The notes: generated by a model not told the origin, from the letters alone. A stretch of 64,000 nucleotides of DNA from an uncultured Candidatus Berkelbacteria bacterium (GCA_903877885.1 CAIRFN010000004.1:19869-83868); one strand, 5' to 3'; positions 8,445 through 61,123 are shown, numbered from the stretch's first letter. A program made the numbers and translations.

Positions 8445-9293
8445 ATGTCAGACGAAATTATTATTATTCAAAAAGAACTGGAAAAAATTAGACGGGTTGA
8501 GCAAGATATTGAATATTGGACGGCCAGAGATTTAATGCCGATGTTGGGCTATAAAAAGTGGTCAACTTTTTTAAAAGCTATCGATAGGGCAAAATCATCA
8601 TGCGAAAATAGTAGCCAAAACGTATTAGACCATTTTGCCGGCGCCGGCAAAATGGTTGTTCTTGGATCAGGTAGTCAAAGAGAAATTGAAGATTTTTTAC
8701 TCACTCGTTACGCTTGTTATTTAATAGCTCAAAACGGTGATCCCAGAAAACCGGAAATTGCTTTCGCGCAGACTTATTTCGCGATTCAGACTCGCAGACA
8801 GGAAATAAACGAACAACGAATTGAAGAAGATAAAAGACTCGAAGCTAGATATAAGCTAAAAGAAACCGAAGAAACAATCGAACAAACTGTGTACGAGCGC
8901 GGTATAAAATTACCAATAGAATTCGCAACTTTTAAAAATAAACATATCAAGGCGCTTTATGGCGGAATTGATGCTATCGATTTGAAGATAAAAAGAAATA
9001 TTCCAAAACATCGAGCTCTGGCTGATTTTGATAGTCATGTCGAACTTCGTGCAAAAGATTTTGCTTTAGCAATGACAGATCACAATATCAGAGAAAAGAA
9101 TTTGGTTGGTATTCCTAAACTCGAAAGTGAAGTTATGGCTAATAGCCATGCGACAAGAAAAACTTTAATTGAAAGAGGAATCAAACCAGAAAATTTGAGG
9201 CCTGAAGAAGATATAAAAAAGATCGAAAATAGACGAAAAAAGATTGAAAAATTGCAGAATAGTACAAATAAATATTTAACTGAAAAATTGTAA
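8445..9293 (+). CDS. dinD: DNA-damage-inducible protein D-like (KilA-N/Bro-N domain)
   Basis: The first ~110 aa (WTARDLMPMLGYKKWSTFLKAIDRAKSS...KMVVLGSGSQREIEDFLLTRYACYLIAQNGDPRKPEIAFAQTYFAIQTRRQE) closely follow the E. coli DinD pattern. Confidence 0.65.
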   Translation: MSDEIIIIQKELEKIRRVEQDIEYWTARDLMPMLGYKKWSTFLKAIDRAKSSCENSSQNVLDHFAGAGKMVVLGSGSQREIEDFLLTRYACYLIAQNGDPRKPEIAFAQTYFAIQTRRQEINEQRIEEDKRLEARYKLKETEETIEQTVYERGIKLPIEFATFKNKHIKALYGGIDAIDLKIKRNIPKHRALADFDSHVELRAKDFALAMTDHNIREKNLVGIPKLESEVMANSHATRKTLIERGIKPENLRPEEDIKKIENRRKKIEKLQNSTNKYLTEKL

Positions 9294-15646: not shown

Positions 15647-15649
15647 TTG

Positions 15650-16495
15650 ATGTTGGAAAAATCAAAAAAATTAACGATTTTTGAAAAGGAAAAAATCCGT
15701 CGATTTTGGGATGAGGCTAAGGAATTATGGTATTTTTCAATAATCGATATTATCGGTGTTTTAATCGAACAACCAGACTTTAAAAAGGCCAAAAGTTACT
15801 GGTCTACTCTTAAGAATCGTCTCAAAAATGAAGGTAGTGAGCTGGTCACAAAATGTGACCAACTGAAAATGCCATCCGCAGACGGCAAATTTTACAACAC
15901 TGATGTGGCTGACGTGGAAACAATTTTGCGCTTAGTCCAATCGGTGCCCAGCCCAAAAGCCGAGCCGATTAAATTATGGTTAGCAAAAGTCGGCTATGAG
16001 AGAATGCAAGAAATAATTGATCCGGAAAAATCCATTAATCGTGGTCGGCTGAATTGGCAAAGAATGGGGCGAAGCGAGAAATGGATTCAACAGCGGATGA
16101 TGGGCCAAGAAATCAGAAATAAATTGACAGATTATTGGGCGGATCATGAAGTTAAAGAAAAAGGTGAATATGCGATTCTTACAAATATTATTCATCAAGA
16201 ATGGAGCGATTTAACAGTTAAAGAACATAAAAATCTTAAGAAACTTAAAACTGAAAATCTTCGCGATCATATGACCGATGCAGAATTGGTTTTTACGGCT
16301 CTAGCTGAGCTTTCGACGCGTCAAATTGCCGAAACTGTAGGAGCAAACGGTTTAGTGGAAAACAAAATTCCAGCTGAAAAAGGTGGTCAAATTGCAAAAA
16401 ATGCGCGTTTGGAGCTAGAACAAAAAACTGGTCAAAAAGTGGTGAGCGGGAGTAATTTTAAAGCTTTATCGGGACAAAAAAGTAAAATAAAATAA
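15650..16495 (+). CDS. Bro-N/KilA-N domain protein (phage antirepressor-like). ATG at 15650 is preferred.
   Basis: FSIIDIIGVL...AEPIKLWLAKVGYERMQEI resembles the Bro-N fold. Paralogous in architecture to the dinD-like gene at 8445. Confidence 0.5.
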   Translation: MLEKSKKLTIFEKEKIRRFWDEAKELWYFSIIDIIGVLIEQPDFKKAKSYWSTLKNRLKNEGSELVTKCDQLKMPSADGKFYNTDVADVETILRLVQSVPSPKAEPIKLWLAKVGYERMQEIIDPEKSINRGRLNWQRMGRSEKWIQQRMMGQEIRNKLTDYWADHEVKEKGEYAILTNIIHQEWSDLTVKEHKNLKKLKTENLRDHMTDAELVFTALAELSTRQIAETVGANGLVENKIPAEKGGQIAKNARLELEQKTGQKVVSGSNFKALSGQKSKIK

Positions 16496-16503
16496 AGGAC
16501 CAA

Positions 16504-18261
16504 ATGAAAAAAGAAATTTTTTCTCAAGACTTAAATTCACTTCTGAAAAACATTTGTGTTAATGAAAATGATTTTTATGAAACCGCTAACTCTAACACTA
16601 AGTTTTTAAAAAATATTTTTAGTAGTTTGGATAAGGATTACATTTTTCTATTAGTCGATTATCAAAAAGATGAAAAGTTAGTTGATAAAGGTTTGGTTAT
16701 TGGCGATTTAGTCAAAAATCCAGATTATAATTATTCTTTTGTGCCACTTGGTATTATTATTGAAGGTGAAGTGATTGTAAATAAAGGCGGGAAAGCCACC
16801 AAACGCTTAACAGAAGGTGATTTTATTGGTTTGTTTGAGACAAGTGATTGGTTAGAAACTGGAAAAAGAAGAGAAATTGGCGACTGGACTCTTATCGCTG
16901 GTCAAAATACTCAAATTGTTTTTTTCCCTTCTAAATTTTTTACAACTGATAATAAGATTAGCCAAACCTTTAATAACTATTTGACTGAATTAGCGCGAAA
17001 TGATCGGGTGCCGCAACCAATCACCGATTTGCCTCTTCTAGATTGGGCCGCAAGTCATACAACTAAATCAAGACTTTCCGACTATGTGATTGTGGTACAT
17101 ACTCATTTATTGCCAAATTCTTTTCCGTTTTTTCGCCAATTAGCTCATTTGGGAAATTTTGGCAAAATATTTATTATGGAAAAGCCATATTCAACAGTTC
17201 GCCAAACTTTTAACAATCTAATTCAAGCTGGTTGCGAGGTCGTCCAGGTCCAAATGGAACCAGGCCTCCCTTATGAATTTTCGGTTAAAAAGAGTCTCGA
17301 TCTTTTGTGGGCAAAAGTTATTGACGAGCAAAAGAAAACTTCTTTTAAAAAATTGTTGATAGTAGATGATGGGGCCGAACTTTGGCTTTCAATTCCATGG
17401 AATGATTTAAAAGATGTTTTAATCGCTGGCGTTGAACAAACTCAAAGAGGGATTACTCGAATCAAAAATAGCAATCATCATATTCCTCCGATTGTTAGTG
17501 TTGCTTCTAGTGGTGTCAAAAAGATTGTTGAATCGATTTTTATCGGACAGTCAGTGGTTAATAAATTTAATGAGCTAGGTATTTTTTCACAAAACAAGAA
17601 AATCGGCATTATCGGTATGGGCAGTATCGGGTCAGCTGTGGCTGATTATTTAAGCGAAAATAATCAGGAATCTTATTTTTACGACCCGCTTGGTCGCGAA
17701 AAAGTAGACACAAAAGCAATTAGTTATCCTTCACTTGATTCATTACTTAATAATTGCGATATAATTATTGGTACGACTGGTACAGACGCACTTAAAGGTA
17801 TCGCATTCGATAGAGTCCATGGGCAAAAAATTCTAGCAAGCGCGTCTTCGACTGATGTAGAATTTGCGACACTTTTAAAACTTGCAGAACCAACTACCGA
17901 GCCATTTGGTGTTCGTAAAGTAAAAGTAAATGAAAATTTAGAATTTGATATTTTGAATGGCGGTTATCCACTTAATTTTGATAGAGAAAAAAACGCAACA
18001 CCTGATGAAGACATTGTTTTAACCTGGTGTTTAATGTATATAGGCGCAATGCAGGCAGTGCGGTTGATTGATAAAAAAATTCGAGATGGTAAAATTTACG
18101 ATTTAGATATAATTTCTCAAGAAAAAATTCTAAAAAAGTGGATTGAAGAAAAAATAAAATTAGGGCAAAATCCAAACATTCTAGATGACGAGATTAAACG
18201 AATAATAAATTCCACACATCTTGATGGCGCTGGAACTATACCGAGTGTTTGGGAAGATTAA
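16504..18261 (+). CDS. Fusion of an N-terminal cNMP-binding-like domain with an adenosylhomocysteinase (AHCY)-like two-domain enzyme
   Basis: The N-terminal region has a cyclic-nucleotide-binding-like beta-roll (GDFIGLFE). The C-terminal ~430 aa track AHCY block by block: GVEQTQRGITR~EETTTGV, IGIIGMGSIGSAV~GYGDVGKG Rossmann fold, IIIGTTGT~VTTTG, LIVDDGAEL~ILDDGGD. Confidence 0.55.
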   Translation: MKKEIFSQDLNSLLKNICVNENDFYETANSNTKFLKNIFSSLDKDYIFLLVDYQKDEKLVDKGLVIGDLVKNPDYNYSFVPLGIIIEGEVIVNKGGKATKRLTEGDFIGLFETSDWLETGKRREIGDWTLIAGQNTQIVFFPSKFFTTDNKISQTFNNYLTELARNDRVPQPITDLPLLDWAASHTTKSRLSDYVIVVHTHLLPNSFPFFRQLAHLGNFGKIFIMEKPYSTVRQTFNNLIQAGCEVVQVQMEPGLPYEFSVKKSLDLLWAKVIDEQKKTSFKKLLIVDDGAELWLSIPWNDLKDVLIAGVEQTQRGITRIKNSNHHIPPIVSVASSGVKKIVESIFIGQSVVNKFNELGIFSQNKKIGIIGMGSIGSAVADYLSENNQESYFYDPLGREKVDTKAISYPSLDSLLNNCDIIIGTTGTDALKGIAFDRVHGQKILASASSTDVEFATLLKLAEPTTEPFGVRKVKVNENLEFDILNGGYPLNFDREKNATPDEDIVLTWCLMYIGAMQAVRLIDKKIRDGKIYDLDIISQEKILKKWIEEKIKLGQNPNILDDEIKRIINSTHLDGAGTIPSVWED

Positions 18262-18280
18262 AAAACTACAAAGGAATCAA

Positions 18281-19741
18281 ATGTCAGAAGAAGAAATTAG
18301 AACCCGAATTGCGCCGAGTCCAACCGGATATTTTCATATCGGCACGGCTCGCGCCGCTTTATTTAACTGGCTTTACGCCAAACGTTTTGGCGGAAAATTT
18401 ATTTTGCGAATGGAAGATACGGATAAAGCTCGTTCAACCGAGGAATATGCCATTGATATTATGGAATGTATGAGCTGGTTAGGTTTGGATTGGGATGAGG
18501 GTCCGGAAAATCCGGATTTATATGGTCCATATCGCCAATCAGAACGGGCGGAAATTTATCAAAAATATGCCAAACAACTTCTCGATGAGAGGTTGGCTTA
18601 CAAATGTTATTGCACGCCAGATGAATTGGAAGCCGAGAAAAAATTGCAGATGGAACGGCACGAACCACCAAAATATTCTGGTCGTTGCCGCAATTTGTCG
18701 CCCGAACAAATTTTGGCTTTTGAAAATGAAGGTCGCAAACCGGCTCTGCGCTTTAAAATCGACGAAAGTAGTCCAATCAAATTCAAAGATTTAATTAAAG
18801 GCGAAATGGAATTTGACCCAAAGCTTTTCGGTGATTTTATTGTGATGAAATCTGATAATTTACCGGCTTTTATGTTTGCCGGCATTATTGATGATTCGGA
18901 AATGAAAATTTCTTTAGTTATGCGCGGCGAAGATCATCTATCAAATACGCCACGACAAATTTTGTTAGCCAAAGCTTTGGATTTACCGATTCCTGATTAC
19001 GCTCATCTGTCGATGATTTTAAATTCTGACAAAACCAAAATGAGTAAACGCAAAAATCCAGTGTCGGTCTCTAAAGATTTTCGCGATAAAGGCTATTTGC
19101 CGGAAGCAATGATTAACTTTTTGGTACTACTTGGTTGGTCACCGAAAGAGGGGAAATCCGACGAAATTTATAGTTTAGATGATTTAACTAAAGAATTTGA
19201 TTTGTCGGAGGTGGGTAAATCTCCAGCGATTTTTGATACGACTAAACTCGATTTTTTCAATGGATATTATATCCGTCAAATGGAACTGGGCGAGTTAGCC
19301 AAGCGCTGTCTGCCATATTTGTTGGCTGCCGATTTAATTAAAAAAGAAGATGAAAAAATTTTGAAAGTCGTCGCTTTGGTCCAAGAAAGAATGAAAAAAT
19401 TGTCCGAAGTCGTCGAATTAACTGATTTTATGTTTAAAGAAATTGACTATCCAGCCGAACTTTTAATTACCAAAGGCACAACTAAAGAAATTACTTTGAA
19501 GGCTTTAGAAGAATCGGCCAAAGTTTTGACTGACGAAACCGATTATAGTCGCGATTCTTTGGACGGATTACTTCGAGCTTTGGCTACCAAACTTGGGTTT
19601 ACAGCCGGTCAAATTTTATGGCCAATTCGGGTAGCTTTATCTGGAAAACCGGCGTCGCCTGGTACATTCGAACTCTTAGATTTCTTTGGCAAAGATGAAA
19701 GTCTATCGCGTATTAAAAAAGCGATTGATATGCTAAAATAA
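18281..19741 (+). CDS. gltX: Glutamyl-tRNA synthetase. ATG at 18281; the ORF track starts earlier at 18221.
   Basis: HIGH region APSPTGYFHIGTAR and KMSKS motif KMSKR. Confidence 0.95.
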   Translation: MSEEEIRTRIAPSPTGYFHIGTARAALFNWLYAKRFGGKFILRMEDTDKARSTEEYAIDIMECMSWLGLDWDEGPENPDLYGPYRQSERAEIYQKYAKQLLDERLAYKCYCTPDELEAEKKLQMERHEPPKYSGRCRNLSPEQILAFENEGRKPALRFKIDESSPIKFKDLIKGEMEFDPKLFGDFIVMKSDNLPAFMFAGIIDDSEMKISLVMRGEDHLSNTPRQILLAKALDLPIPDYAHLSMILNSDKTKMSKRKNPVSVSKDFRDKGYLPEAMINFLVLLGWSPKEGKSDEIYSLDDLTKEFDLSEVGKSPAIFDTTKLDFFNGYYIRQMELGELAKRCLPYLLAADLIKKEDEKILKVVALVQERMKKLSEVVELTDFMFKEIDYPAELLITKGTTKEITLKALEESAKVLTDETDYSRDSLDGLLRALATKLGFTAGQILWPIRVALSGKPASPGTFELLDFFGKDESLSRIKKAIDMLK

Positions 19742-19845
19742 GAACCTTTCTTCGAAAGAACCTTGTTTTACTCGTCGATAACTCGTAAAATAAGAACCTT
19801 TCTTCGAAAGAACCTTGTTTTACTCGTCGATAACTCGTAAAATAA
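19742..19845. repeat. Perfect tandem duplication of a 52-bp unit (2 copies) between gltX and the GT4 gene
   Basis: gaacctttcttcgaaagaaccttgttttactcgtcgataactcgtaaaataa occurs twice back to back. Each unit has a small hairpin (ctttc-ttc-gaaag). Confidence 0.8.
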
Positions 19846-25910: not shown

Positions 25911-26966
25911 ATGTTTAATCCAAAATATATTCTTTCAAATAAAATCGTATCAATGTTAACTTCAATTGCCGAGTCAAAAGTGATTATTGAACGTGCTAAG
26001 TTATTGCCGAAAAATGAAGTCAGACTTCGTCGTCAAGCTTTGATAAGAATGACTCACAGTTCAACAGAAATTGAGGGTAATATTCTCAACATTCAACAAG
26101 TTGAGCGACTGTTTGCCAATAAAAAGGTTGACGCTCCAGAAAGAGATATTTACGAAGTTGAAAATTATATTAAAGCTCTAAAATATATCGAAACAGTTAT
26201 AGAAGCTAAAAAACCGATAAACAGTACAATTCTTTTAAAAATACATGGACTTGTAACTCATAATACCTTGCCAAAAGAACAATCTGGCCATTTTCGCCAA
26301 AGTCTGATTTATATTGTACAGCGTCGTCTTGGGATGCCGAATAAAGTTATGTATACCGGTCCGGAATCTGATCGTGTATCTGAATTATGCAAAGATCTTT
26401 TTGACTGGTTAGACCAAAGCAAAGAAAAAAATATCAATCCAGTCATCGTCGCCGGTATAGTTCACCAAGAAATTGCCGCTATCCATCCTTTTGCTGATGG
26501 AAACGGCCGAACAGCGCGAGCAATGGCAACTTTAATTCTCTATGAACGTGGTTATGATTTTCGACGACTTTTTGCTTTAGAAGATTATTACAATAAAGAT
26601 CGGTCAAGTTATTATGAAGCAATAAATATTGGAAAGAATTATTCAGAGCGACGGACCGATATTACGTCTTGGCTCGAATATTTTGTGAAAGGTTTTAAAG
26701 GAGAGATTGACTTAGTTAAGGCGCAAATTGCTAATTTATCGCTTCGAAATCTTAATGATAAAATCGAATCAAAGATTTTTCTTGAGAAAGATCAAATGCT
26801 TATTTTGGATTTTATTGATCAGATGGGAAAAATTACGGTTACTGACGTTATCGATATTCTTCATTGTCCGAGACGTACCGCGCAATCTAAACTATTAAAG
26901 CTAAAAGAACTAGGAATAATTATCCAAACAGGAAAGGGCCCATCAACCGCTTATATTTTGAAATAA
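25911..26966 (+). CDS. Fic-family protein (AMPylator-type) with a C-terminal winged-helix domain
   Basis: Canonical Fic motif HPFADGNGRTARA. Confidence 0.85.
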   Translation: MFNPKYILSNKIVSMLTSIAESKVIIERAKLLPKNEVRLRRQALIRMTHSSTEIEGNILNIQQVERLFANKKVDAPERDIYEVENYIKALKYIETVIEAKKPINSTILLKIHGLVTHNTLPKEQSGHFRQSLIYIVQRRLGMPNKVMYTGPESDRVSELCKDLFDWLDQSKEKNINPVIVAGIVHQEIAAIHPFADGNGRTARAMATLILYERGYDFRRLFALEDYYNKDRSSYYEAINIGKNYSERRTDITSWLEYFVKGFKGEIDLVKAQIANLSLRNLNDKIESKIFLEKDQMLILDFIDQMGKITVTDVIDILHCPRRTAQSKLLKLKELGIIIQTGKGPSTAYILK

Positions 26967-35896: not shown

Positions 35897-36193
35897 ATGA
35901 CAGCGAAAAAGAAAGGTACGGGGTCAATGACCGTAGCCGAAGCCGGTCGCAAGGGCGGCACGAAGACTGCCAAAACTCATGGTCACGAGTTCTATGAGGA
36001 AATCGGCCGCAAGGGCGGGGTTAAAGTCAGGGATGAATATGGCGTGGCGTTTTACGAGGAGATTGGCCATAAAGGTGGTCAGAAGGTCAAGGATCTGATC
36101 GAAATGGGCAAGCGTGCTCAAGCCGCCGAAACCGAAGCCGATCGACGTCTGGCCGAGCGGGCCAAGGCTATCAAAAAGGGAGTCGGGAAATGA
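35897..36193 (+). CDS. KGG-repeat stress-induced protein (YciG/GsiB-like), GC-rich
   Basis: Repeats of EAG(R)KGG...K..FYEEIG(R/H)KGG. Confidence 0.75.
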   Translation: MTAKKKGTGSMTVAEAGRKGGTKTAKTHGHEFYEEIGRKGGVKVRDEYGVAFYEEIGHKGGQKVKDLIEMGKRAQAAETEADRRLAERAKAIKKGVGK

Positions 36194-36390
36194 GCGAGAA
36201 GAAATCTGGTGGTCAAATGACTGTGGCCGAAGCGGGTCGCCGCGGCGGCAATGCAGTCAAGAAAAAATACGGCACGGCGTTTTACGAGGAAATTGGCCAT
36301 AAAGGCGGTCAAAAGGTTAAACGTCTGATCGAACAGGCCAAACGAATTGAGGCCGCCGAGAAGCGCGCCGCCGAAACGCCGTGGGACTAA
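36190..36390 (+). CDS. KGG-repeat stress-induced protein, tandem paralogue
   Basis: Same repeat architecture. ATGA overlap with the upstream gene. Terminator at about 36404-36430. Confidence 0.75.
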   Translation: MSEKKSGGQMTVAEAGRRGGNAVKKKYGTAFYEEIGHKGGQKVKRLIEQAKRIEAAEKRAAETPWD

Positions 36391-36470: not shown

Positions 36471-36863
36471 ATGCCTTATTTGCAAACACAAGTTACAACT
36501 CAAGCAATTATTAAAAATGAAATTGGTGAAATTTTATTATTAAGACGTAATAAACCTGGTGGCTGGTTTACCTTGCCAGGCGGCACGGTTGAGGAAGGGG
36601 AAACGGTTATTCAGGCCTTAGAACGAGAGATTCTCGAAGAAACTGGTTCGAAACTAAAAACTGCCAATCCTGTTTGGGTTTGGCAAAGTAACCATATCGG
36701 CAAAGATTTGTTAGGAATTGTTTTTAATGTTGCAGAAATTGTAAAAAAAGATACAAAAATTGAACTTACAGAAGAGCACGATAAATATCAATGGTTTAAA
36801 ATCGAGGATCTGATGGATGACGAATCAGTCGATCCTTATATCAAAAAACCAGAACTCTTTTAA
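36471..36863 (+). CDS. NUDIX hydrolase
   Basis: Nudix box GGTVEEGETVIQALEREILEETG. Confidence 0.8.
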   Translation: MPYLQTQVTTQAIIKNEIGEILLLRRNKPGGWFTLPGGTVEEGETVIQALEREILEETGSKLKTANPVWVWQSNHIGKDLLGIVFNVAEIVKKDTKIELTEEHDKYQWFKIEDLMDDESVDPYIKKPELF

Positions 36864-52454: not shown

Positions 52455-54272
52455 ATGAATATTAATAGTATCAACAATCTGCTTTTAATAATTTTTATCT
52501 TAATTTTACTTTTGTCATTCTATGTATGGAAGGCAAAACCTAAGAATAAATTAAACATTTCTTTTGCAGTTTTTTGTATTGTAACTGGATTATGGATATT
52601 TTTTAATTATCTTTGGGGAATATTCCAAACATCCGAACTTATTCTGACGTTAACTTATATAATTAGTCCATTCATAGTAATAAGTATGTTTGTTTGGGTA
52701 AACTTTTTGTATCACGATAAAATATCGAATATTTTAAAGTCTAGTATTTCAGTTATGTCTGGTTTTGGAATACTGTTATCATTTATAAGTTTTAATCCCC
52801 ACTATCCTTTAATTAATGCTGTCCAAAATCGTTTTGAGTTCAAAACTGGTCCAATATTTCCGATTTTTACCATATATTTTTCAATAGTAGTCATAGGGTT
52901 TCTGTTTTACTATTTTTATAAATTAAAGAGCGCAACTAAAGAGCTAAAGAAGTCATTGGTTGTGATGACGATAGGCATTTTCCTTAGTCTATTAATTGGC
53001 GCAGCTGTGTCTTTTGTATTACCTATGATCGGCTTTGTAAATTTAGCTATTCTCGATGCGCCATCTGCTATATTTTTTGTATCTTTCTCGGCTTATGCAA
53101 TTCTAAAAATGCAGTTATTTGATTTAAAAATGATTTTGACCGAGATACTAACATACTTTGTTCTAATAGTTTCGTTTATAATATTATTTTTTATAAAGGA
53201 AGATGTTAATATCATAGTAAAAATTATATTAATGTTAGTTTTTGTTTATGGTGGGTACCAATTAGTAAAAAGTGTCGATAGTGAAGTTAAACAAAAGGAA
53301 AAGCTTCAAGAACTTAGTACTCAACTTGCGCAAGCCAACTCTCACCTCAAAGACCTAGACAAAATGAAAACGGAATTTGTGAGTTTGGCATCACATGAGT
53401 TGCTGACTCCGGTTTCGGCGATTGAAGGTTATTTATCGATGATGCTGGATGAGCATTTGGTCAAGTTGGAAGATCCGAAAGCGGTCCAATATATGGATCG
53501 GGTTTATCGCTCGGCTAAACGCCTCGCGCGATTGATCGCCGATATGTTAAACATTTCTCGAATTGAAGAAGGCCGATTATTGGTTGAGAAAAAAGAAGTT
53601 AGTCTGACGGAACTGATTAATCAGGTTCTTGATGAACTTAAATTCAAAGCCGAAGAACACAAACAAAAAATCGTTTTTGAAAATTCCGGAACTGATACTT
53701 CTATGACTTACGCTGACCCTGACAAGGTTAAGGAAATTTTGGTCAATATTATTGGTAACTCAATTAAGTACACCATGAATCCGGGGACGATTACGGTATC
53801 GGTCGAAAAAGTGCCGACCAAGGTTTTGACCGATGAGTGGAGTAAACTTGAAGCCGTGATTTTAGCTAGCACCGTCGATGATCAAGAATCGATTCATGCA
53901 GTGGCTGACGAACATATGAAACAGATTTTGGGCGACCAACAATATTTGATTAAAGTTAAAGATCAGGGCATTGGGATTCCTAAAGAGGAATTGCCGAAAT
54001 TGTTTAAGAAATTCCATCGGGTGGGCGATTTTTCCACTGCTGAAAGCCAAGGCACGGGCCTGGGGCTTTATATTACTCGCGCGTTGGTAGAACTTCATCA
54101 TGGTCGGGTTTGGCCTGATTCAGAAGGCCAGGGCAAGGGTTCAACTTTCACTTTTAGTTTGCCAACAGTTGAATCAAAACAAGCTATCATTGACATCGAA
54201 AAACAAAGTCCTCAAACCAAGGAACAATTAAAGCCATTGGCAAAACCGATGGGAAACGATGATAGCCTATAA
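52455..54272 (+). CDS. Sensor histidine kinase with a multi-TM (7TMR-type) N-terminal region
   Basis: H-box ASHELLTPVSAIEG, HATPase N/G boxes (NIIGNSIKYT, GTGLGLYI), 8 or more TM helices. Confidence 0.85.
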   Translation: MNINSINNLLLIIFILILLLSFYVWKAKPKNKLNISFAVFCIVTGLWIFFNYLWGIFQTSELILTLTYIISPFIVISMFVWVNFLYHDKISNILKSSISVMSGFGILLSFISFNPHYPLINAVQNRFEFKTGPIFPIFTIYFSIVVIGFLFYYFYKLKSATKELKKSLVVMTIGIFLSLLIGAAVSFVLPMIGFVNLAILDAPSAIFFVSFSAYAILKMQLFDLKMILTEILTYFVLIVSFIILFFIKEDVNIIVKIILMLVFVYGGYQLVKSVDSEVKQKEKLQELSTQLAQANSHLKDLDKMKTEFVSLASHELLTPVSAIEGYLSMMLDEHLVKLEDPKAVQYMDRVYRSAKRLARLIADMLNISRIEEGRLLVEKKEVSLTELINQVLDELKFKAEEHKQKIVFENSGTDTSMTYADPDKVKEILVNIIGNSIKYTMNPGTITVSVEKVPTKVLTDEWSKLEAVILASTVDDQESIHAVADEHMKQILGDQQYLIKVKDQGIGIPKEELPKLFKKFHRVGDFSTAESQGTGLGLYITRALVELHHGRVWPDSEGQGKGSTFTFSLPTVESKQAIIDIEKQSPQTKEQLKPLAKPMGNDDSL

Positions 54273-54425
54273 TATATTCAACTCTAGGTACGTTTCCGCG
54301 GAGATTGCCGCCGCAATCATGGGAAACGACGACAGCCCATAAAGAACTCGTTAGAGAATTTAACCTTGACTTATTTTGATATTTAGTATAGAATGAAGAC
54401 ATCTTGTTTCAAAGGGGGAAATTCT

Positions 54426-54734
54426 ATGTCGACGCAGTCTGATGCCGAGTTGAAAGAGTTTTTCGAAATGAAGACCATGTTGACTGGTAAATGGGTTCGC
54501 GGTTCCTACTGGGTTGGTCAAATTCTGATTATCTGGTGGGCAATCCAAATGATGCACGATACAGGCTTGTTTCCAGCGATACTGATGGCTGCAATCCTTA
54601 GCTTTGCCTGGCGGATTATCAGTGAATTCTTTATCATTATCTTCGCGATTCATGAAGAGTTAGTGACGATTCGCCGGACACTAACGAAACAGGCCGAGCC
54701 GAACGACGAACCGCCGAATAATTCTACAGATTAA
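54426..54734 (+). CDS. Small two-TM membrane protein. ATG at 54426 after RBS aaggggga.
   Basis: ORF with two hydrophobic helices, followed by a terminator (agacttgaaactcaagtct+T7). Confidence 0.4.
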   Translation: MSTQSDAELKEFFEMKTMLTGKWVRGSYWVGQILIIWWAIQMMHDTGLFPAILMAAILSFAWRIISEFFIIIFAIHEELVTIRRTLTKQAEPNDEPPNNSTD

Positions 54735-54808
54735 AATAACTTTAAAGACTTGAAACTCAAGTCTTTTTTTGATAAAATGAGACCAACCTGAAGGGGAGGT
54801 GAACGACA

Positions 54809-55537
54809 TTGACAATCTATGAATATTTTGCGCATCTCGAACATATGCCGCGGATATTAGCCGTGGAAATTTTTTACGCTTTTCATTTTATCTGTAAATA
54901 TCAGGGGCCAGGCAAGCAGACGCGTCATTCTGGCGAACCGTATTTAGACCATCTGGCTGAAGTTGGATGGGAAATTTTGCAAATTAGACCAGATAATGCT
55001 CCGATTAATCATCATCATAATGGGGATTTTATTTTCTATTTAGATGATGAGGCAGAAATCGCGGCTTTATTGCATGATGGTATTGAAGACACCAAAGAAA
55101 TTACCAGAGAGCTGATTATCGAAGGTTTTAGTAAAGGTCGTGGTCAGGTTTTTGGCGAACGAGTGGCTAATATTGTTAGCGCTTGTTCAAAGCTGCCGAT
55201 TGGAAAATTTCATGGTGATAAAATTGCTCAAACCGAAGAAGCATTTTGTCGATGGAAAGACTATTGTCGAAAAGATTGGATGGCCCTGCCAGTTAAAGTC
55301 AAAGATCGACTTCACAATATGCGGACACTTCGAGGCTTAAATCAGGAGCGGCGATCGCGGATTGCTCTTCAAACGATGGAAGTAATGGTGCCATATTTGG
55401 AAAGTGAAGCCAAGCAAATCGTGCCGGCAGAATATCATAGTTGGTTAGAAAAAGATACTAAAGAAATTGGTTTAATTGCGGCGCAATTTTTACCGCAACG
55501 ATATAAAATTAGCATTTCAATTGTCGGCTCTAGTTAA
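54809..55537 (+). CDS. HD-domain protein resembling the RelA/SpoT (p)ppGpp hydrolase domain (small alarmone hydrolase-like). Start is TTG at 54809 or ATG at 54844.
   Basis: H...H (YLDHLAEVG) and AALLHDGIEDT, the SpoT-type HD signature. Confidence 0.6.
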   Translation: MTIYEYFAHLEHMPRILAVEIFYAFHFICKYQGPGKQTRHSGEPYLDHLAEVGWEILQIRPDNAPINHHHNGDFIFYLDDEAEIAALLHDGIEDTKEITRELIIEGFSKGRGQVFGERVANIVSACSKLPIGKFHGDKIAQTEEAFCRWKDYCRKDWMALPVKVKDRLHNMRTLRGLNQERRSRIALQTMEVMVPYLESEAKQIVPAEYHSWLEKDTKEIGLIAAQFLPQRYKISISIVGSS

Positions 55538-55628
55538 ATCTAGAGCCTTTTTTAATTGTTATAAATATTGTGGTACAATATACTAAATACATAATTCTAA
55601 ATACAAAATACTAACTTAGGGAGGGAAT

Positions 55629-56285
55629 ATGCCAAAAGGTAGCAAAGTGCTCATGGCCGATGATGACAAAATGCTCTTGGATATGTATAAGGAGCGATTG
55701 GAATTAGCTGGCTACACAGTTGAAAGTTATGGTAATGGCGAGGAAGCCTTGGCTCATGTGCATGATTTTATGCCAGATTTAATTATGCTTGATGTGATGA
55801 TGCCAAAGAAGAACGGTTATGAAACTTTGGCCGCGTTAAAAACTGATCCGGTGACGAAAAATATTCCGGTGATTATGCTTTCGGCTTTAATGCGCGATTT
55901 TAACCGTGAAAAAGCGGTTGAAGGCGGCGCCGAAGATTATTTAATTAAATCGGAAGCGATGCCCTCGGATGTGATTACTAAAATCGAACAGGTTTTACAA
56001 CACTATGGCAAGGGAACGGCAGCAATGCCTGGCGCGGTGACTGAACCGGCACCAACACCGCCAGCTGAAAATCCGACACCACCAGTGGCTCAACCAGCGC
56101 CAACTGAACCGACAGCCGCGCCGCAGGAAGCTCAAACGGAAGCTAAAAAAACCGATATTCCTAATGCCAAAACTGTTTATAAATCAAGCGCCAATAATGG
56201 CGGTAGTGAAGGCCTGATTATCATTGCGGTTTTGCTTGTTTTGGCCGCCGCAGTTGTGGCTTACTTTGTCTTTTTTAAAAAATAA
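55629..56285 (+). CDS. Receiver (REC) domain protein with a Pro/Thr-rich linker and a C-terminal transmembrane anchor
   Basis: REC motifs (VLMADDD..., MPDLIMLDVMMP, phospho-acceptor D). Then PTPPAENPTPP repeats and LIIIAVLLVLAAAVVAYFVFF. Confidence 0.7.
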   Translation: MPKGSKVLMADDDKMLLDMYKERLELAGYTVESYGNGEEALAHVHDFMPDLIMLDVMMPKKNGYETLAALKTDPVTKNIPVIMLSALMRDFNREKAVEGGAEDYLIKSEAMPSDVITKIEQVLQHYGKGTAAMPGAVTEPAPTPPAENPTPPVAQPAPTEPTAAPQEAQTEAKKTDIPNAKTVYKSSANNGGSEGLIIIAVLLVLAAAVVAYFVFFKK

Positions 56286-56423
56286 CTTAAGGCGATTATT
56301 TAGTATAACTTTAAGAGAATTTTACAAGAGATTATTTTAAATATATTTGACAAGTTCAAACCGTACAATTAGTATCATAATTAGAAGTAAATTAAATGAT
56401 ACTTTTGTATCAAAGGAGCTAAA

Positions 56424-56801
56424 ATGGAAAGTGGAAAAGTAATTTTATTGGTTGACGACGATCTCACTTTAAGAGAAATGTATGATGAACGGTTGAAGGC
56501 CGAGGGTTTTGAAATTATTCAGGCCAGTAACGGCGAAGAAGCAATTGCTAAAGCTAAAGATGTCAAACCAAATGTTATTTTGCTCGACATTATGATGCCA
56601 AAAATCAATGGTTTTGATGTTTTGAAAGATCTCAAAGAAAATCCGGAAACCAAGGATACACCAGTCATAATTTTAACGGCTCTAATTCAAGATGTTGATC
56701 GTTTGCAAGGCAAAAAACTTGGCGCCGCCGATTATATTGTTAAATCTGAAACTATGCCTGGTGAGGTCATCGCCAAGATTAAGAAAGTAATGGGGAACTA
56801 A
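56424..56801 (+). CDS. Single-domain CheY-like response regulator
   Basis: ILLVDDD..., NVILLDIMMP, TALIQ..K REC-domain pattern. Its last 43 nt are duplicated at 60840-60882. Confidence 0.85.
   Translation: MESGKVILLVDDDLTLREMYDERLKAEGFEIIQASNGEEAIAKAKDVKPNVILLDIMMPKINGFDVLKDLKENPETKDTPVIILTALIQDVDRLQGKKLGAADYIVKSETMPGEVIAKIKKVMGN
56753..56795. repeat. Left copy of a perfect 43-bp direct repeat (inside the 3' end of the response-regulator gene)
   Basis: tatgcctggtgaggtcatcgccaagattaagaaagtaatggg is identical at 60840-60882. Confidence 0.85.
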
Positions 56802-56836
56802 AAGAGAAATTAAAAAACCTGAAAGTATTAAAACTT

Positions 56837-57832
56837 TCAGGTTGTCATATTTGTAATAATTTTATTGATTTGTTCATATGCATATGCCTCATATTTTTTT
56901 TGTTTAACAAAATAATTATTGAGGAATACAAGTATTCCTAAAGCGTCCAGTAAATCAATTAATATTTGTACTTCATAATCATTTGCTGCATCAAATTTAG
57001 ATTCATCATAGGCTAATCTAAAAACCTCTAGTAGTTCTCTTGATTGAAGAGTTTTCCTAATTTTATTTATATCATATGCAATATCGCCAAACTCGGCTTG
57101 TGCATGATCCAAAAGATATATTTTTCCATTTTGATGGACTTGCCAGTTTCCGTAATGAACATCGCGGTGGCATAAACCTCTTGTACTGATCCTTGAACAT
57201 CTTTTTAAAAGTTTATTAAAGATAGTGATAATTCTTTCAAGATAATCAACGTCCAAATTTTTTTCTATTGTATGTATATTAGAATCAAATTTCGCAACGA
57301 TTTCTTCTTGGAATGTGCCAGTTATTACTTTAGGAATAAATTCTGTTCCTTGTTCATTTTCAAAAAAGGAATGAAGTTTTGCTAAAATTTTAGCCATCTC
57401 TTCGACTTGCCAATTTTCGACATTTTCCATAATGATTTTTCCAGGCAAATACTCCATGACAATAAGAGGAAACTCTAAGAATAACTTCTTTGGTTGAGGT
57501 ACTAATATCCCTTTGCTAAAAAGATATTCTCCGACATAAAAATCTATCTCGATTTTTTTAGCTTTTCTAGGCTCATGCCATTTAACAATTAATGGTTCTT
57601 GTTTTTCTATTTGGAAAATTGCAACATCATAGAATGGAACATTTTCATATTGACAACGAAAACGATCAAAATTAGTTATTTTTCCAAATTTTTCAATCAA
57701 AAATTTTTTGACTTCTTCACCTCGATCTTCGGCTGACAAAATAACATTATCCATTAATATACCTCCTCTGTTGTTTTCTGTTGTTAAAATGCAATTGAAC
57801 ATCATTATAACTGTTTTTTTGGATAATTTCAA
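56837..57832 (-). CDS. Aminoglycoside/choline/methylthioribose-kinase-fold phosphotransferase (APH family)
   Basis: Brenner motif HRDVHYGNWQV (HxDxxxxN) and a downstream D. Confidence 0.6.
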   Translation of the reverse strand: MKLSKKTVIMMFNCILTTENNRGGILMDNVILSAEDRGEEVKKFLIEKFGKITNFDRFRCQYENVPFYDVAIFQIEKQEPLIVKWHEPRKAKKIEIDFYVGEYLFSKGILVPQPKKLFLEFPLIVMEYLPGKIIMENVENWQVEEMAKILAKLHSFFENEQGTEFIPKVITGTFQEEIVAKFDSNIHTIEKNLDVDYLERIITIFNKLLKRCSRISTRGLCHRDVHYGNWQVHQNGKIYLLDHAQAEFGDIAYDINKIRKTLQSRELLEVFRLAYDESKFDAANDYEVQILIDLLDALGILVFLNNYFVKQKKYEAYAYEQINKIITNMTT

Positions 57833-57970
57833 CTTAATTTTTTATTTTATTTCATCAAAACCATTTAAGAGTGGACAGATGTTTATGTTTTGTGCTATAA
57901 TGATTGCGATTTGTTACATAAGTAACAAATGTTCTTTACAATTAAGTTTGGACAGAGGGGGTATGCGATA

Positions 57971-58690
57971 ATGTATTACGACTCGAAGGTAATAGATATT
58001 AGAAATTCTGTTGCTTCATCATTAGTCGTTCAATCTATCGACGTTAATGCTATATTTATTGATAGAATTGTTTCACGGATGTTCGCAAAGTGCAGCGTTC
58101 TTGATATCGGAACTGGCAACGGATTTGTGCTATCCGAAGTATTGAAGGTTTATATAGAACCTTGTCAACTTTTCGGTGTGGATAAATCGTTTGACATGGT
58201 GAAGCTGGCTAAGAATAATTTAGGAGAAGCAGCAATTATCTCAGAGGCTGATAATAGTTATTTACCATTTGGAGACGAAACGTTCGATATTGTTACGGCA
58301 AAAAATGTGACAAGATTTAGCTCAAGCGAAGTTTTCAGGGTTTTAAAGTCAGGCGGATATTTCATCTTTAGAGAATATGGGGCAGGAAAAGGGTTATTGG
58401 AATTAGCGAATATTTTCAAAGAGCGGCTTTTACGCTCTCGAAGTTACGATTTTTACACTAAATCATTAGCGGACAGCGGTTTCAGTGTAGTCAGCGTTGA
58501 AACATTCGAAGTGGTCCGGAGATATAGAGATGTCGAGTGTGTTATTAATATCGTGCAGAGTTTTCCTTTTATTGAGAATTATTCATATTCTGACGAGATT
58601 TGTATACGTGAATTATTTGGTGATGATGAAGTAAGCATCACATCTGATCCTTTTATTATAATCGCGCGCAAATTTACTGAAGGAGGGTAA
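57971..58690 (+). CDS. Class I SAM-dependent methyltransferase. ATG at 57971 is preferred.
   Basis: Motif I VLDIGTGNGF and motif post-II LPFGDETFDIV. Confidence 0.75.
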   Translation: MYYDSKVIDIRNSVASSLVVQSIDVNAIFIDRIVSRMFAKCSVLDIGTGNGFVLSEVLKVYIEPCQLFGVDKSFDMVKLAKNNLGEAAIISEADNSYLPFGDETFDIVTAKNVTRFSSSEVFRVLKSGGYFIFREYGAGKGLLELANIFKERLLRSRSYDFYTKSLADSGFSVVSVETFEVVRRYRDVECVINIVQSFPFIENYSYSDEICIRELFGDDEVSITSDPFIIIARKFTEGG

Positions 58691-58694
58691 TCGA

Positions 58695-59183
58695 ATGAGG
58701 AAAGTAGAGTTGCTATTTGACACTATTAGGTCGCCATATGATATTGCCCATATCATTCAGATTGCACAATCTATCGATTGCGTAGTCTATACTGCCGGTA
58801 AGAATTCCGTACCTTTCAATCATCACAAGGTTATTGGAAAAATAAGGTCCTGGAATATTAAAGGAGATATTTCTGAGATCCATTATAATACTTTTGATGA
58901 AGCCGTATATGATCTTAAGGGGATGGGAAAATTCTTAATAGGTACTTCGGGCAATGCGGATACGCTGTTTTATCAATTAGATTTTCCAGAGGAGAAAAAT
59001 ATCGTGCTTGTCTTTGGTACAGAGGCGTCTGGGTTGAATCAATCTAAACAAGAGTTGATGGACATCATAGTGAAGTTGCCGATGAATGAATCAAAGGTTG
59101 ACTTTCTAACATTACCTGTCGCTGTTTCTGCGATGGCCTATGAGTTGTATAGGCAATACAATTTTTCCAGAAGGGGGTACTGA
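58695..59183 (+). CDS. SPOUT (SpoU/TrmH/TrmL-like) RNA 2'-O-methyltransferase-fold protein
   Basis: LVFGTEASGL, the TrmH-family motif. ~160 aa, typical of TrmL-like proteins. Confidence 0.6.
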   Translation: MRKVELLFDTIRSPYDIAHIIQIAQSIDCVVYTAGKNSVPFNHHKVIGKIRSWNIKGDISEIHYNTFDEAVYDLKGMGKFLIGTSGNADTLFYQLDFPEEKNIVLVFGTEASGLNQSKQELMDIIVKLPMNESKVDFLTLPVAVSAMAYELYRQYNFSRRGY

Positions 59184-59184
59184 A

Positions 59185-60252
59185 ATGCTTACAAACAAAA
59201 CGATTTACATTGTTACCACTGGGGCAACAAAGGTAAAAAGCGTGAGTATGCTGTTGAATCAGTTCAAACAAGAAAAAGCTAATTGTGTGTTAATACCAAC
59301 ATCAATGTCTTGTTCTATGATGGATTGGGACTCTATCAACGGCTTCAATATAAGAAAGGATTATGCTGGCGAAGATAGTGAAAATCTGCCCGAAGAGGAT
59401 ATCGTAGTTGTTGCTCCTTGTACATTCAATTCCTTTTCAAAAATCGCTCATGGTATTGCTGATAATTATCCAATGTCAATATTGCACGCAGCGATAGGTA
59501 AAAATAAGCATGTAGTTATTGCACCAGCTATGAATTATTGGTATTTCAATCATCCATTAACAAAAGAGAATCTCTCTAAAATATCTTCATACGACAATGT
59601 CAGTATTGTGTATCCAGAATTTATCTACTCGAGTGACGGCAAGTTAGAAAAAATTACTATGGCACCTTGGGAAAAGATATTTGATAATGTTTGTCATAAA
59701 TATGAGAAAATCAGATATATTGATAGGAAGATTTTGTTTAACGGATCATCGTTAGTGGAGAAATACTTTTCTGAATTTTCTTTGACAGGTGTACATTTGC
59801 AAGAGAACCATTATGCGAATAGTACAGCAGGTTTTATGGCAATGAGAATTCCCGAAGGTATATTGATTACTTGCTCTGGTTCTTTAGTGGGTAGTCTATC
59901 TAGAGATGACATAACCATTATCCATGGTTGGGATAATCATGAGGTATTGTGGTCTGGAACTTCGAGGCCGTCTTTTGAGACACCTCTTGTCCTTGAAATG
60001 TTTGAAGCATTTCCATATAAAACTGTCATAGTGCATGGGCATTGTCGGGATGTTACCTATAGCCCAAAAACATTAAAATACAATAGCCTCGGCTATCTGA
60101 AATATGGTGAGTGGAATGAATTATATAAGATTAAACCAGTTTTAGAAGCTTATGGGAAGGGTATTATGAAACTCCACGGAGAGGTAATAATGGCAAATAA
60201 TTTTAAGGAAGCGTTGAATATGTATTTTGATATGTATAAAGAAACTCAATAA
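59185..60252 (+). CDS. Fusion of an HFCD-family flavoprotein domain (CoaC/EpiD-like) with a class II aldolase/adducin-like domain. ATG at 59185 is preferred.
   Basis: The N-terminal IYIVTTGATK...IVVVAPCTFNSFSKIAHGIADNYPMSIL matches the HFCD flavoprotein pattern (cf. lvvaPaTaNtlaKlAnGiaDnLl). The C-terminal half has the class II aldolase fold (VIVHGHCRD). Confidence 0.55.
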   Translation: MLTNKTIYIVTTGATKVKSVSMLLNQFKQEKANCVLIPTSMSCSMMDWDSINGFNIRKDYAGEDSENLPEEDIVVVAPCTFNSFSKIAHGIADNYPMSILHAAIGKNKHVVIAPAMNYWYFNHPLTKENLSKISSYDNVSIVYPEFIYSSDGKLEKITMAPWEKIFDNVCHKYEKIRYIDRKILFNGSSLVEKYFSEFSLTGVHLQENHYANSTAGFMAMRIPEGILITCSGSLVGSLSRDDITIIHGWDNHEVLWSGTSRPSFETPLVLEMFEAFPYKTVIVHGHCRDVTYSPKTLKYNSLGYLKYGEWNELYKIKPVLEAYGKGIMKLHGEVIMANNFKEALNMYFDMYKETQ

Positions 60253-60385
60253 TCGCATCTGAATTTGGCTGGATATAAAGAATTTTGTCCAGCCTTTTTA
60301 TATTCTTATTATTTTCATTATTTAGTGGTATAGTGAAAATTGAGGAAGATAAAAAATTTAATAAAAATTAAACATGAAAGTCTAA

Positions 60386-60811
60386 ATGATAAAGAAAAAA
60401 ATTTTAGCAATTGTTTATCGGAAAAAAAATAATAAAGAAGAAATTCTTGTACTAAAACAAAATGCTACTGATAAAATTCATCAAGCAGTCGGATTTTATG
60501 TAATTACTGGTGCAGTTGAAGGTAACGAAAGTTCGACTGATGCAGTAAAAAGAGAAATCAAAGAAGAGACAGGAGTCAAAAACATAATTAATATCCAGGA
60601 TTTAGAAACGGTCTTTGAATATAAACATCCGGCCGAAGGAGATTGTTTGTGTCAAGAATATTGTTTTGCTGTATTAGTTGATGATGAAGTGAGACATTTG
60701 AGCAAAGAGCATACAGAATACAGATGGCTATCAATAGAAGATTTTATAGAAACGGTATATTGGTATGGTGATAAATCAGATTTAAAGAAGTTATTAGATA
60801 AATTTATATAA
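60386..60811 (+). CDS. NUDIX hydrolase
   Basis: Nudix box GAVEGNESSTDAVKREIKEETGV. Confidence 0.7.
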   Translation: MIKKKILAIVYRKKNNKEEILVLKQNATDKIHQAVGFYVITGAVEGNESSTDAVKREIKEETGVKNIINIQDLETVFEYKHPAEGDCLCQEYCFAVLVDDEVRHLSKEHTEYRWLSIEDFIETVYWYGDKSDLKKLLDKFI

Positions 60812-60839
60812 TAATCTATTTGAGCAAGCAAAGCATTAG

Positions 60840-60882
60840 TATGCCTGGTGAGGTCATCGCCAAGATTAAGAAAGTAATGGGA
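60840..60882. repeat. Right copy of the 43-bp direct repeat (intergenic remnant of the response-regulator 3' end)
   Basis: Identical to 56753-56795. The next 6 nt differ (aaatta vs gaacta) before a shared taa stop triplet. Confidence 0.85.
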
Positions 60883-60894
60883 AATTAAAGAAAT

Positions 60895-60977
60895 GTCATT
60901 CCCGAGTCGAGTGGCACTCGACATCGGGAATCCAGTTCCTAGATTCCAGATCCTGCGGCCCGCCGGTCTGGAATGAC
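60895..60977. other. GC-rich structured element (nested hairpins), possibly an ncRNA, terminator complex or mobile-element end
   Basis: Outer gtcatt/aatgac pairing encloses attcccgagtcgag-tggca-ctcgacatcgggaat and ccaga...tctgg hairpins. Confidence 0.35.
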
Positions 60978-60985
60978 AATGATTT

Positions 60986-61123
60986 TTATTTTGGGCCGAA
61001 AATAAAGAGTAGAATAGTTCCGAGAACGATAAACAATAAAATAATTTCTAAAGAAACCGCGATCATTTGTTTGGCGCGGATTTCTTTTTGTAATTGCGGT
61101 GGTAAAAGATTAATGTGTTTCAT
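60986..61123 (-). CDS. PilN-like N-terminal fragment (45 aa, TM segment only), translationally coupled to pilM
   Basis: MKHINLLPPQLQKEIRAKQMIAVSLEIILLFIVLGTILLFIFGPK. The INLLP motif and TM helix match PilN. The start overlaps the pilM stop (ATGA). No periplasmic domain. Confidence 0.4.
   Translation of the reverse strand: MKHINLLPPQLQKEIRAKQMIAVSLEIILLFIVLGTILLFIFGPK

Follow-up and report, generated by a model that had tools for sequence, protein, structure and literature searches.

A recombinase-less 4,087-bp islet at the 3' end of a response-regulator gene in Candidatus Berkelbacteria

The results presented here establish that a 4,087-bp unit carrying five enzyme genes has been inserted at the 3' end of a gene for a CheY-like response regulator in one lineage of Candidatus Berkelbacteria, within the Candidate Phyla Radiation (CPR). 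The insertion lies in a 64,000-nucleotide stretch of DNA from an uncultured Candidatus Berkelbacteria bacterium (GCA_903877885.1 CAIRFN010000004.1:19869-83868), here called the window, within which positions are counted unless a contig is named. The unit, measured between the starts of two direct repeats, is a genuine, lineage-specific insertion, and we consider it probable that this islet originated by site-specific recombination, with a recombinase that was subsequently lost or was supplied in trans. The features that define its two junctions are:

56424 to 56801, plus strand: target gene, encoding a single-domain CheY-like response regulator of 125 aa (Pfam Response_reg, E=2.9e-25)
56753 to 56802, plus strand: left repeat (attL-like), the regulator's last 16 codons, with 42 nt identical to the right copy
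60840 to 60889, plus strand: right repeat (attR-like), a displaced, promoterless copy of the regulator's last 16 codons
61120 to 62037, minus strand: pilM, the native right flank (Pfam PilM_2, E=3e-25)

The regulator gene is conserved and syntenic in Berkelbacteria, where the gene order is RR1-RR2-(pilO-pilN)-pilM (RR, response regulator); the regulator has 956 homologs, the top ones of which are 80-91% identical and are named Candidatus Berkelbacteria. In loci L011-L013 and L133, which have regulators 90% identical to that of the window, pilO, pilN, and pilM come immediately after the regulator gene, on the opposite strand. With contigs of P0004 (91%) and P0007 (89%), the regulator stop codon is 189 bp from the pilM stop codon, and the gap contains one 48-aa open reading frame (ORF) in P0007 and no called ORF in P0004. 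With about 10 more orthologous loci in Joint Genome Institute (JGI) metagenomes, the regulator and pilM are 1.2-1.8 kb apart, and the interval consists of pil genes. The cargo genes of the islet are present at this site in none of these more than 10 related Berkelbacteria loci. Against species-representative genomes, the regulator yielded, among the matches listed, distant regulators of 38-71% identity (Saccharibacteria and others), too remote to serve in the empty-site comparison, and a single query with PilM yielded no confirmed relatives.

The direct repeats match at 48 of 50 nt. Exact identity extends over 42 nt (56753-56794 vs 60840-60881), begins abruptly at its left edge, position 56753, in a gapped alignment, and ends at a first mismatch of G (56795) against A (60882); of the eight bases that follow the identical block, this mismatch included, six match. 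The repeat starts 49 nt upstream of the regulator gene end (the stop codon ends at 56801), and the two mismatches, GGG/GGA and AAC/AAT, are at third-codon positions and are synonymous, since both copies translate to MPGEVIAKIKKVMGN followed by a stop codon. Both mismatches fall within the last 8 of the 50 positions, an arrangement that, by our own arithmetic, has a chance of about 2% under random substitution. A first-pass annotation of this DNA had described a perfect 43-nt repeat consisting of the gene's last 43 nt, with divergence immediately beyond it; the repeat pair is where that annotation placed it, and its length, its relation to the gene end, and its supposed abrupt right edge are corrected by the values above.

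The 42-mer occurs exactly twice in the window, as compared with an expectation of zero from 100 dinucleotide-preserving shuffles, and the window contains no more than four families of direct repeats that reach 28 nt, of which the other three are tRNA-Arg paralogs, a 125-nt pair, and a 52-nt tandem duplication. A strict codon-degenerate pattern of the strain-specific attachment (att) sequence has no other match in JGI metagenomes; a relaxed pattern, built on the conserved MPGEVIAKIK end, retrieves 27 orthologous loci from the same metagenomes, each with a single copy and none a second occupied site. The tail encoded by both repeat copies, KKVMGN, is unique among about 120 orthologs, and the element's copy would therefore have arisen in the same narrow lineage as the gene that it duplicates.

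Contigs L001, L002, and L004-L006 cross both junctions at 100% identity; they come from at least four samples and different assemblers and include assemblies with k=141, longer than the repeat, and an assembly chimera is thereby excluded. (A further, short contig, L003, joins the window at 56355 and carries an identical regulator gene; its upstream nucleotides 1-58 match nothing in the window or in any fetched locus, and represent either a strain variant of the regulator promoter region or a chimeric contig.) Because relatives lack the duplication and because the repeat is not dispersed, we conclude that the 4,087-bp unit is a lineage-specific insertion. The first-pass annotation had read the locus as an element integrated into the regulator 3' end with a replacement end, a reading that would have yielded to an old duplication shared by relatives or to a dispersed multi-copy repeat. 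The att-like repeats and the empty sites, at which the regulator is followed directly by pil genes, without cargo and without a second repeat copy, sustain that reading, and neither of the two opposing findings was made.

The islet carries no recombinase: its five cargo ORFs contain enzyme domains only (Pfam). Phage_integrase, Resolvase/Recombinase, and rve domains are absent from ORFs of at least 120 aa throughout the 64-kb window, and no recombinase is found among genes called up to about 6.8 kb beyond it, so that the first-pass statement that no integrase is present holds for the islet and extends well past it. A self-sufficient integrative island, prophage, or integrative mobilizable element (IME) has its own recombinase, and this islet has none; given the absence of an integrase from islet and window, an island that has decayed or that is mobilised in trans therefore stays the best reading. 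The composition of the islet is atypical and, together with the promoter-like and terminator signals that it brings (below), marks it as foreign DNA. At 33.2%, its GC content is below that of the rest of the window (37.7%) and ranks last among 600 sliding intervals of equal size, and its tetranucleotide usage is the most deviant in the window; the earlier description of the cargo DNA as low in GC is thus correct, the difference being modest. The composition is also a mosaic, with GC content at third codon positions (GC3) of about 0.20 for the first and last cargo genes and 0.33-0.41 for the three core genes between them.

According to the reading that we favour, a circular element that itself carried a copy of the final ~50 nt of the regulator gene would have recombined, through this attachment sequence, with the regulator 3' end in one Berkelbacteria lineage. 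The crossover would have occurred inside the 42-nt identical core and would have produced a hybrid left site, comprising the native gene body, the core, and then final codons, stop codon, and terminator supplied by the element, and a hybrid right site, comprising the element arm, the core, and then the displaced native gene end and native downstream DNA. The left repeat tail (GGG AAC TAA A) and everything downstream of it would accordingly be island-derived, and the right repeat tail (GGA AAT TAA A) would run on into native downstream DNA. The regulator protein would be unchanged, because the element supplies equivalent final codons and a stop codon, and synonymous mismatches are what is expected, because the element's copy must function as a real gene end. 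In its present form the islet could be moved only if a recombinase acted on it in trans or if the entire locus were exchanged by homologous recombination.

Classic cis-mobilizable elements (CIMEs) occupy the fda gene 3' end in Streptococcus thermophilus. CIMEs are decay products derived from integrative and conjugative elements (ICEs) or from IMEs that keep attL and attR and have no integration or transfer genes (PMC5704250, PMC6323972). The islet resembles them in having att-like direct repeats in the 3' end of an intact protein-coding gene, retained at a site that is empty in relatives, and in being small and cargo-only, with no integrase, excisionase, or relaxase; moreover, the same cargo module is present inside a complete integrase/relaxase element in another phylum (below). 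The islet differs from CIMEs in that no ICE or IME is known at its attachment site, in that it contains no remnant integration or transfer genes, and in that its host belongs to the CPR, for which a narrow literature search found no paper on such an element. A CIME-like element, with att-like sites kept and integration and transfer genes lost or never present, is the best fit. Like islands and prophages at tRNA genes and gene 3' ends, the islet carries a replacement gene end, has repeats of tens of nucleotides, and has atypical composition; unlike tyrosine-integrase islands, it has no integrase gene and is much smaller than typical. To our knowledge, a response-regulator gene has not been described before as an integration site. 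The dusA-specific integrase family, one example from the tyrosine-integrase group, targets a gene 5' end (PMC4482086).

Several observations weigh against this reading. We infer site-specific recombination rather than observe it, because the searches revealed neither a recombinase, nor an excised circle, nor an empty site in the same strain. With no remnant of an integrase or relaxase inside the islet, there is no direct evidence of its decay from an IME. The 50-nt repeat lacks the internal dyad symmetry found in many recombinase core sites, and the hypothetical attP region would comprise only about 113 nt. An element that uses the regulator 3' end as its att site was found in no other genome and in no viral contig, among the 27 orthologous loci and with viral contigs unmatched. 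Finally, curated models lend no support to a function for the cargo (below).

The alternative that survives best, which we regard as unlikely, is Campbell-type RecA integration, in which a small circle carrying about 50 nt of regulator 3' sequence enters by a single crossover, with no dedicated integrase. For RecA-type recombination, a perfect block of 42 nt is close to the shortest that is useful. A single crossover of this type yields the same topology and the same direct repeats, and it would accommodate both the absence of any recombinase in at least 70 kb and a repeat core without dyad symmetry. There is also precedent for small islands that have long direct repeats and lack a recombinase: the Escherichia coli microcin H47 island is described as having extensive flanking direct repeats, no recombinase of its own, and RecA-independent excision (PMC3191183, PMC5426353). 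The islet is like the H47 island in being small, in having long imperfect end repeats, in lacking a recombinase, and in carrying a self-contained cargo operon, and is unlike it in host, cargo, and target site; of the two, it is the H47 island for which excision has been shown experimentally. Campbell-type integration leaves unexplained, however, why a foreign circle should carry exactly a gene 3' end, in frame and with synonymous differences only, a hallmark of elements whose evolution has equipped them to restore the gene that they target; and 42 nt is a very inefficient RecA substrate.

A second, improbable alternative is that the islet formed in a closely related Berkelbacterium, possibly with the integrase there, and was imported through flanking regulator/pil homology. 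Import would account for the missing recombinase in this genome region, and it agrees with the lineage-specific KKVMGN tail in both copies, which points to the same narrow lineage, and with the observation that CPR genomes swap genes mostly with one another (bioRxiv 10.1101/2022.10.05.510940). No donor lineage with the island was found, however, and every island-bearing contig is 100% identical to the window; in addition, import concerns the route of arrival, and a primary integration event would still be needed.

Transposition, with the 50-nt repeat as a target-site duplication that later acquired two substitutions, has very little in its favour beyond the fact that both copies encode an identical, lineage-specific peptide tail. 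The islet has no transposase and no terminal inverted repeats at its ends, its 50-nt duplication is imperfect, and the islet is in these respects unlike a transposon or insertion sequence. A repeat of 50 nt far exceeds any target-site duplication known to us, and the mismatches are clustered at one end, not scattered; because of this length, because both mismatches are in the last eight positions, and because both are synonymous, we favour hybrid att sites over a target-site duplication. Least likely, and essentially already refuted, is that there was no mobile insertion and that the repeat reflects a duplication fixed long ago, a repeat of dispersed type, or a chimera joined at the shared 42-mer during metagenome assembly: the window does come from a metagenome-assembled genome and some short contigs do end near the island edges, but the relatives, the copy number, and the junction-spanning contigs described above speak against it.

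The islet, which we thus read as a probable product of site-specific recombination, contains five genes and a small set of candidate regulatory signals, with less than 420 nt of intergenic DNA in total:

56816 to 56843, both strands: predicted bidirectional intrinsic terminator, island-borne (terminator scan, 11-bp stem)
56837 to 57757, minus strand: cargo 1, APH/ChoK-fold small-molecule kinase-like protein, 306 aa (Pfam APH, E=1.1e-15)
57804 to 57929, both strands: divergent promoter region (promoter scan, 11 of 12 matches on each strand)
57971 to 58690, plus strand: cargo 2, class I S-adenosylmethionine (SAM)-dependent methyltransferase, 239 aa (Pfam Methyltransf_11/25/31)
58695 to 59183, plus strand: cargo 3, SpoU/TrmH-type SPOUT methyltransferase, 162 aa (Pfam SpoU_methylase, E=9e-13)
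59185 to 60252, plus strand: cargo 4, HFCD flavoprotein/class II aldolase fusion (Pfam Flavoprotein and Aldolase_II)
60267 to 60298, plus strand: terminator-like hairpin, GGCTGGA...TCCAGCC followed by TTTTT (read from sequence)
60386 to 60811, plus strand: cargo 5, NUDIX hydrolase, 141 aa (Pfam NUDIX, E=5e-14)

The domain calls of the first-pass annotation (Response_reg, APH, class I methyltransferase, SpoU_methylase, Flavoprotein plus Aldolase_II, NUDIX, and PilM) all agree with Pfam. The terminator at 56816-56843 is predicted now to end both the regulator gene, on the plus strand, and the kinase gene, on the minus strand. In the divergent promoter region, the minus-strand promoter-like site is TTGAAA-17-TATAAT (57832-57804) and the plus-strand site, the island's strongest, is TGGACA-18-TATAAT with an extended -10 element (57872-57901). 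Directly downstream of the latter we read an operator-like inverted repeat, TTTGTTAC-ATAA-GTAACAAA (57910-57929), which suggests that the methyltransferase-SpoU-fusion operon is under repressor control; the island encodes no regulator to pair with it. The hairpin at 60267-60298, which is not in the terminator-scan output since its loop exceeds 8 nt, is a terminator-like candidate for closing this operon. Rfam contributes nothing in the island, or in the GC-rich element beside it (below), beyond one chance-level match.

The kinase and the NUDIX hydrolase have very low GC3 (0.20 and 0.19, respectively). The class I methyltransferase is the first gene of a conserved three-gene core and is 50-53% identical to its counterparts in L014/L016; the SpoU protein is 66-72% identical to its counterparts in the same loci, and its remote solved-structure matches are TrmL, RlmB, and 1x7o (deposited as an rRNA methyltransferase). 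The fusion protein was modelled with AlphaFold from 43 homologs (mean predicted local distance difference test score, 94.7). Its N-terminal half resembles phosphopantothenoylcysteine (PPC) decarboxylase and EpiD (Pfam Flavoprotein, 64 bits), conserves the PAMN motif, and matches in Foldseek 1mvn, 1e20, 3qjg, and 1g63 (PPC decarboxylase, EpiD, HAL3) with target-normalised TM-scores of about 0.8; by its modelled Rossmann-like fold of the FMN-binding type and its conserved motifs, it belongs to the HFCD flavoprotein superfamily. Its C-terminal half matches FucA, YgbL, and AraD (target-normalised TM-scores of about 0.65; the matched entries include 6voq and 2opi). In the family alignment, H284, H286, and H331 are invariant and S263, S264, and E265 are nearly invariant; we take E265, H284, H286, and H331 to correspond to the metal and acid-base site residues of FucA, and the modelled fold and Glu/three-His site place this half in the class II aldolase/adducin superfamily. 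Foldseek lists no solved chain that covers both halves, which are matched separately. The window's fusion protein has Phe264 (TTT, 59974-59976), next to E265, where at least 90% of the family has Ser (TCT); P0121, from another sample, differs from it at residue 264 alone and keeps Ser. The S264F substitution may mark incipient decay or an inactivating polymorphism.

No cargo protein reaches a curated NCBIfam cut-off, APH resistance models included. The best APH model for the kinase is APH(9)-Ia (17.6 bits vs a cut-off of 680), and its best NCBIfam match of any kind is thiamine kinase (32 vs 299); the fusion protein reaches no equivalog cut-off, with CoaBC at 57 bits vs 220. In PADLOC-DB v2 the cargo matches no defence system and gives isolated domain-level matches only, of the methyltransferase (partial) to mad2, of the NUDIX hydrolase to PDC-S07, and, weakly, of the kinase to PD-T4-6 (E=0.0029, 15.3 bits), and none of the SpoU or fusion protein. 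PDB sequence searches with the cargo proteins returned remote, superfamily-level matches only, and the literature searched contained nothing relevant on this combination of genes. The NCBIfam results leave the earlier idea of an antibiotic-modification cassette without support. The most to which we commit is that the cargo appears to constitute a self-contained enzymatic pathway. With low confidence, its steps would be a phosphorylation, two SAM-dependent methylations, a flavin step, a metal-dependent aldolase/epimerase-type step, and a pyrophosphohydrolase step. One of the two methyltransferases has an RNA-type 2'-O-methyltransferase fold, and it is plausible, at the same low confidence, that the cargo serves either RNA modification or the tailoring or detoxification of a phosphorylated compound resembling a sugar or a nucleotide.

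The same genes occur together elsewhere. The fusion protein has about 85 cluster-level homologs among 5.8 billion sequences, and the few whose source is named belong to Paceibacterota, Moranbacteria, Clostridiaceae, and unclassified bacteria; further homologs are P0208 (82% identical) and P0123 (69%). The order methyltransferase-SpoU-fusion is conserved in all fetched contexts (L014-L018, L126-L128, and L131-L132 among them), and a NUDIX gene is near the module in every fetched context except L014/L015; in L131 it occupies the same position after the fusion gene, and its product is 65% identical to the window NUDIX hydrolase. The kinase slot is variable: with L016-L018 and L126-L128, it holds a divergently oriented APH-like gene whose product is only remotely related to the window kinase, and, with L014/L015 and L131/L132, it holds a radical SAM enzyme and a second methyltransferase.

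In Clostridiaceae (L129/L130; GCA_012513065.1), the module lies between Phage_integrase plus HTH_17 genes and Relaxase, MobC, TnpV, and RepA_N genes, a context that, from its gene content, we identify as an IME. This element is like the islet in carrying the NUDIX, methyltransferase, SpoU, and HFCD/aldolase genes, with a fusion protein 59% identical to that of the window. It is unlike the islet in having integrase, Xis-like HTH_17, relaxase, MobC, TnpV, and RepA_N genes, in having a second methyltransferase in place of the APH-like kinase, and in having no regulator-type att sequence. In L015, the module abuts an rve transposase and AbiEii. No regulator-like att sequence and no flanking direct repeats are present at module loci elsewhere, and the module therefore rides different vehicles in different hosts. 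Neither the fusion protein nor the kinase has relatives in the viral contigs, and plasmid and phage collections yield partial CoaBC-like matches and no full-length fusion homolog. We conclude, from its genomic contexts, that the module spreads horizontally among CPR and Firmicutes-like genomes. The module also adjoins two-component genes in three unrelated hosts (window 52455-56801; L016 4406-12718; L126-L128 4034-15491), namely HisKA_7TM kinases and response regulators, with a MacB/FtsX-type ABC transporter in the gut-metagenome contigs; this adjacency may be coincidence or may be regulatory coupling.

Two features lie between the right repeat and pilM, outside the island:

60894 to 60978, strand unassigned: GC-rich two-hairpin element, 85 nt, with termini TGTCATTCC/GGAATGACA
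60986 to 61123, minus strand: mini-PilN ORF, 45 aa, with an INLLP-type N-terminal motif and a hydrophobic stretch

The mini-PilN begins MKHINLLPP, like the N-terminus of full-length PilN, and its start and the pilM stop codon overlap; the window locus has no pilO and lacks the remainder of pilN, as the first-pass annotation had said of pilN in reporting it reduced to 45 codons. The closest island-free relatives share the reduced arrangement (a 48-aa ORF or none called), and slightly more distant relatives keep full pilN and pilO. We considered, and reject, the insertion as the cause of the pilN truncation: since regulator and pilM are already 189 bp apart in the nearest island-free relatives, the loss of pilN and pilO is independent of the island. 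The GC-rich element has a predicted RNA fold of -40.9 kcal/mol (z=-4.6) and is present in a single copy in the window. Two elements with the same termini occur within 20 kb in L052, another Berkelbacteria genome (12968-13055 and 14358-14470), and a half-element directly follows the regulator stop codon in island-free L029. By its structure and distribution, the element belongs to a dispersed family of small palindromic elements in Berkelbacteria, similar to miniature inverted-repeat transposable elements or repetitive extragenic palindromes; three Logan contigs end inside it, at 60951, which fits a multi-copy repeat. The related elements elsewhere and the half-copy in L029 likewise lead us to reject the element as an island-associated scar. 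The first-pass proposal that mini-pilN and hairpin together signal local rearrangement falls with these results, as both occur in island-free relatives.

Other features of the window and its surroundings are recorded here in their own right. The 52-nt perfect tandem duplication (two copies, 19734-19837) starts 8 nt before the end of a Glu/Gln-tRNA synthetase-like gene (18221-19741), and the 125-nt direct repeats (36005-36129 and 36235-36359; 74% identity, 230 nt apart) are just upstream of a second NUDIX gene (36471-36863). Other mobile or conflict elements may have left traces in two Bro-N proteins (8445-9293 and 15647-16495), in a Fic protein (25911-26966), encoded beside the genes for tRNA-Gln and tRNA-Glu, and in a protein of 363 aa (1864-2955) that carries a Phd/YefM antitoxin domain at its N-terminus. 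At L001 19359-20378, about 1.8 kb past the window's right end, the DnaB helicase gene of this strain contains an intein with a LAGLIDADG endonuclease domain (868 aa); the DnaB ortholog in the relative L011 (448 aa) has no intein.

Bulk catalogues of genomic islands from Patescibacteria already exist (bioRxiv 10.1101/2022.10.05.510940), and an island there is for that reason unsurprising in itself; we regard the islet as a fairly ordinary decayed or hitch-hiking genomic islet. Its value as a case is that it provides a clean, base-pair-resolved, att-bounded gene gain in the CPR, at the 3' end of a protein-coding gene and with empty sites, and that the analysis separates the island from two features of the lineage, the mini-pilN and the small palindromic element. 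The most interesting residue of the case is the compact, uncharacterised module that moves between phyla, that is, between CPR and Firmicutes-like genomes, with one copy on an integrase/relaxase element; this mobility makes the module a candidate accessory trait worth biochemical study. We propose, tentatively and as a possibility with the odds against it, that the methyltransferase-SpoU-fusion-NUDIX core, together with its interchangeable kinase/radical-SAM slot, is an unrecognised cross-phylum mobile enzyme system, which in the CPR would travel on a minimal regulator-3'-end cassette that uses an unlinked recombinase. If this is true, the module could be a new RNA-modifying pathway or a new small-molecule-based resistance or defence pathway.

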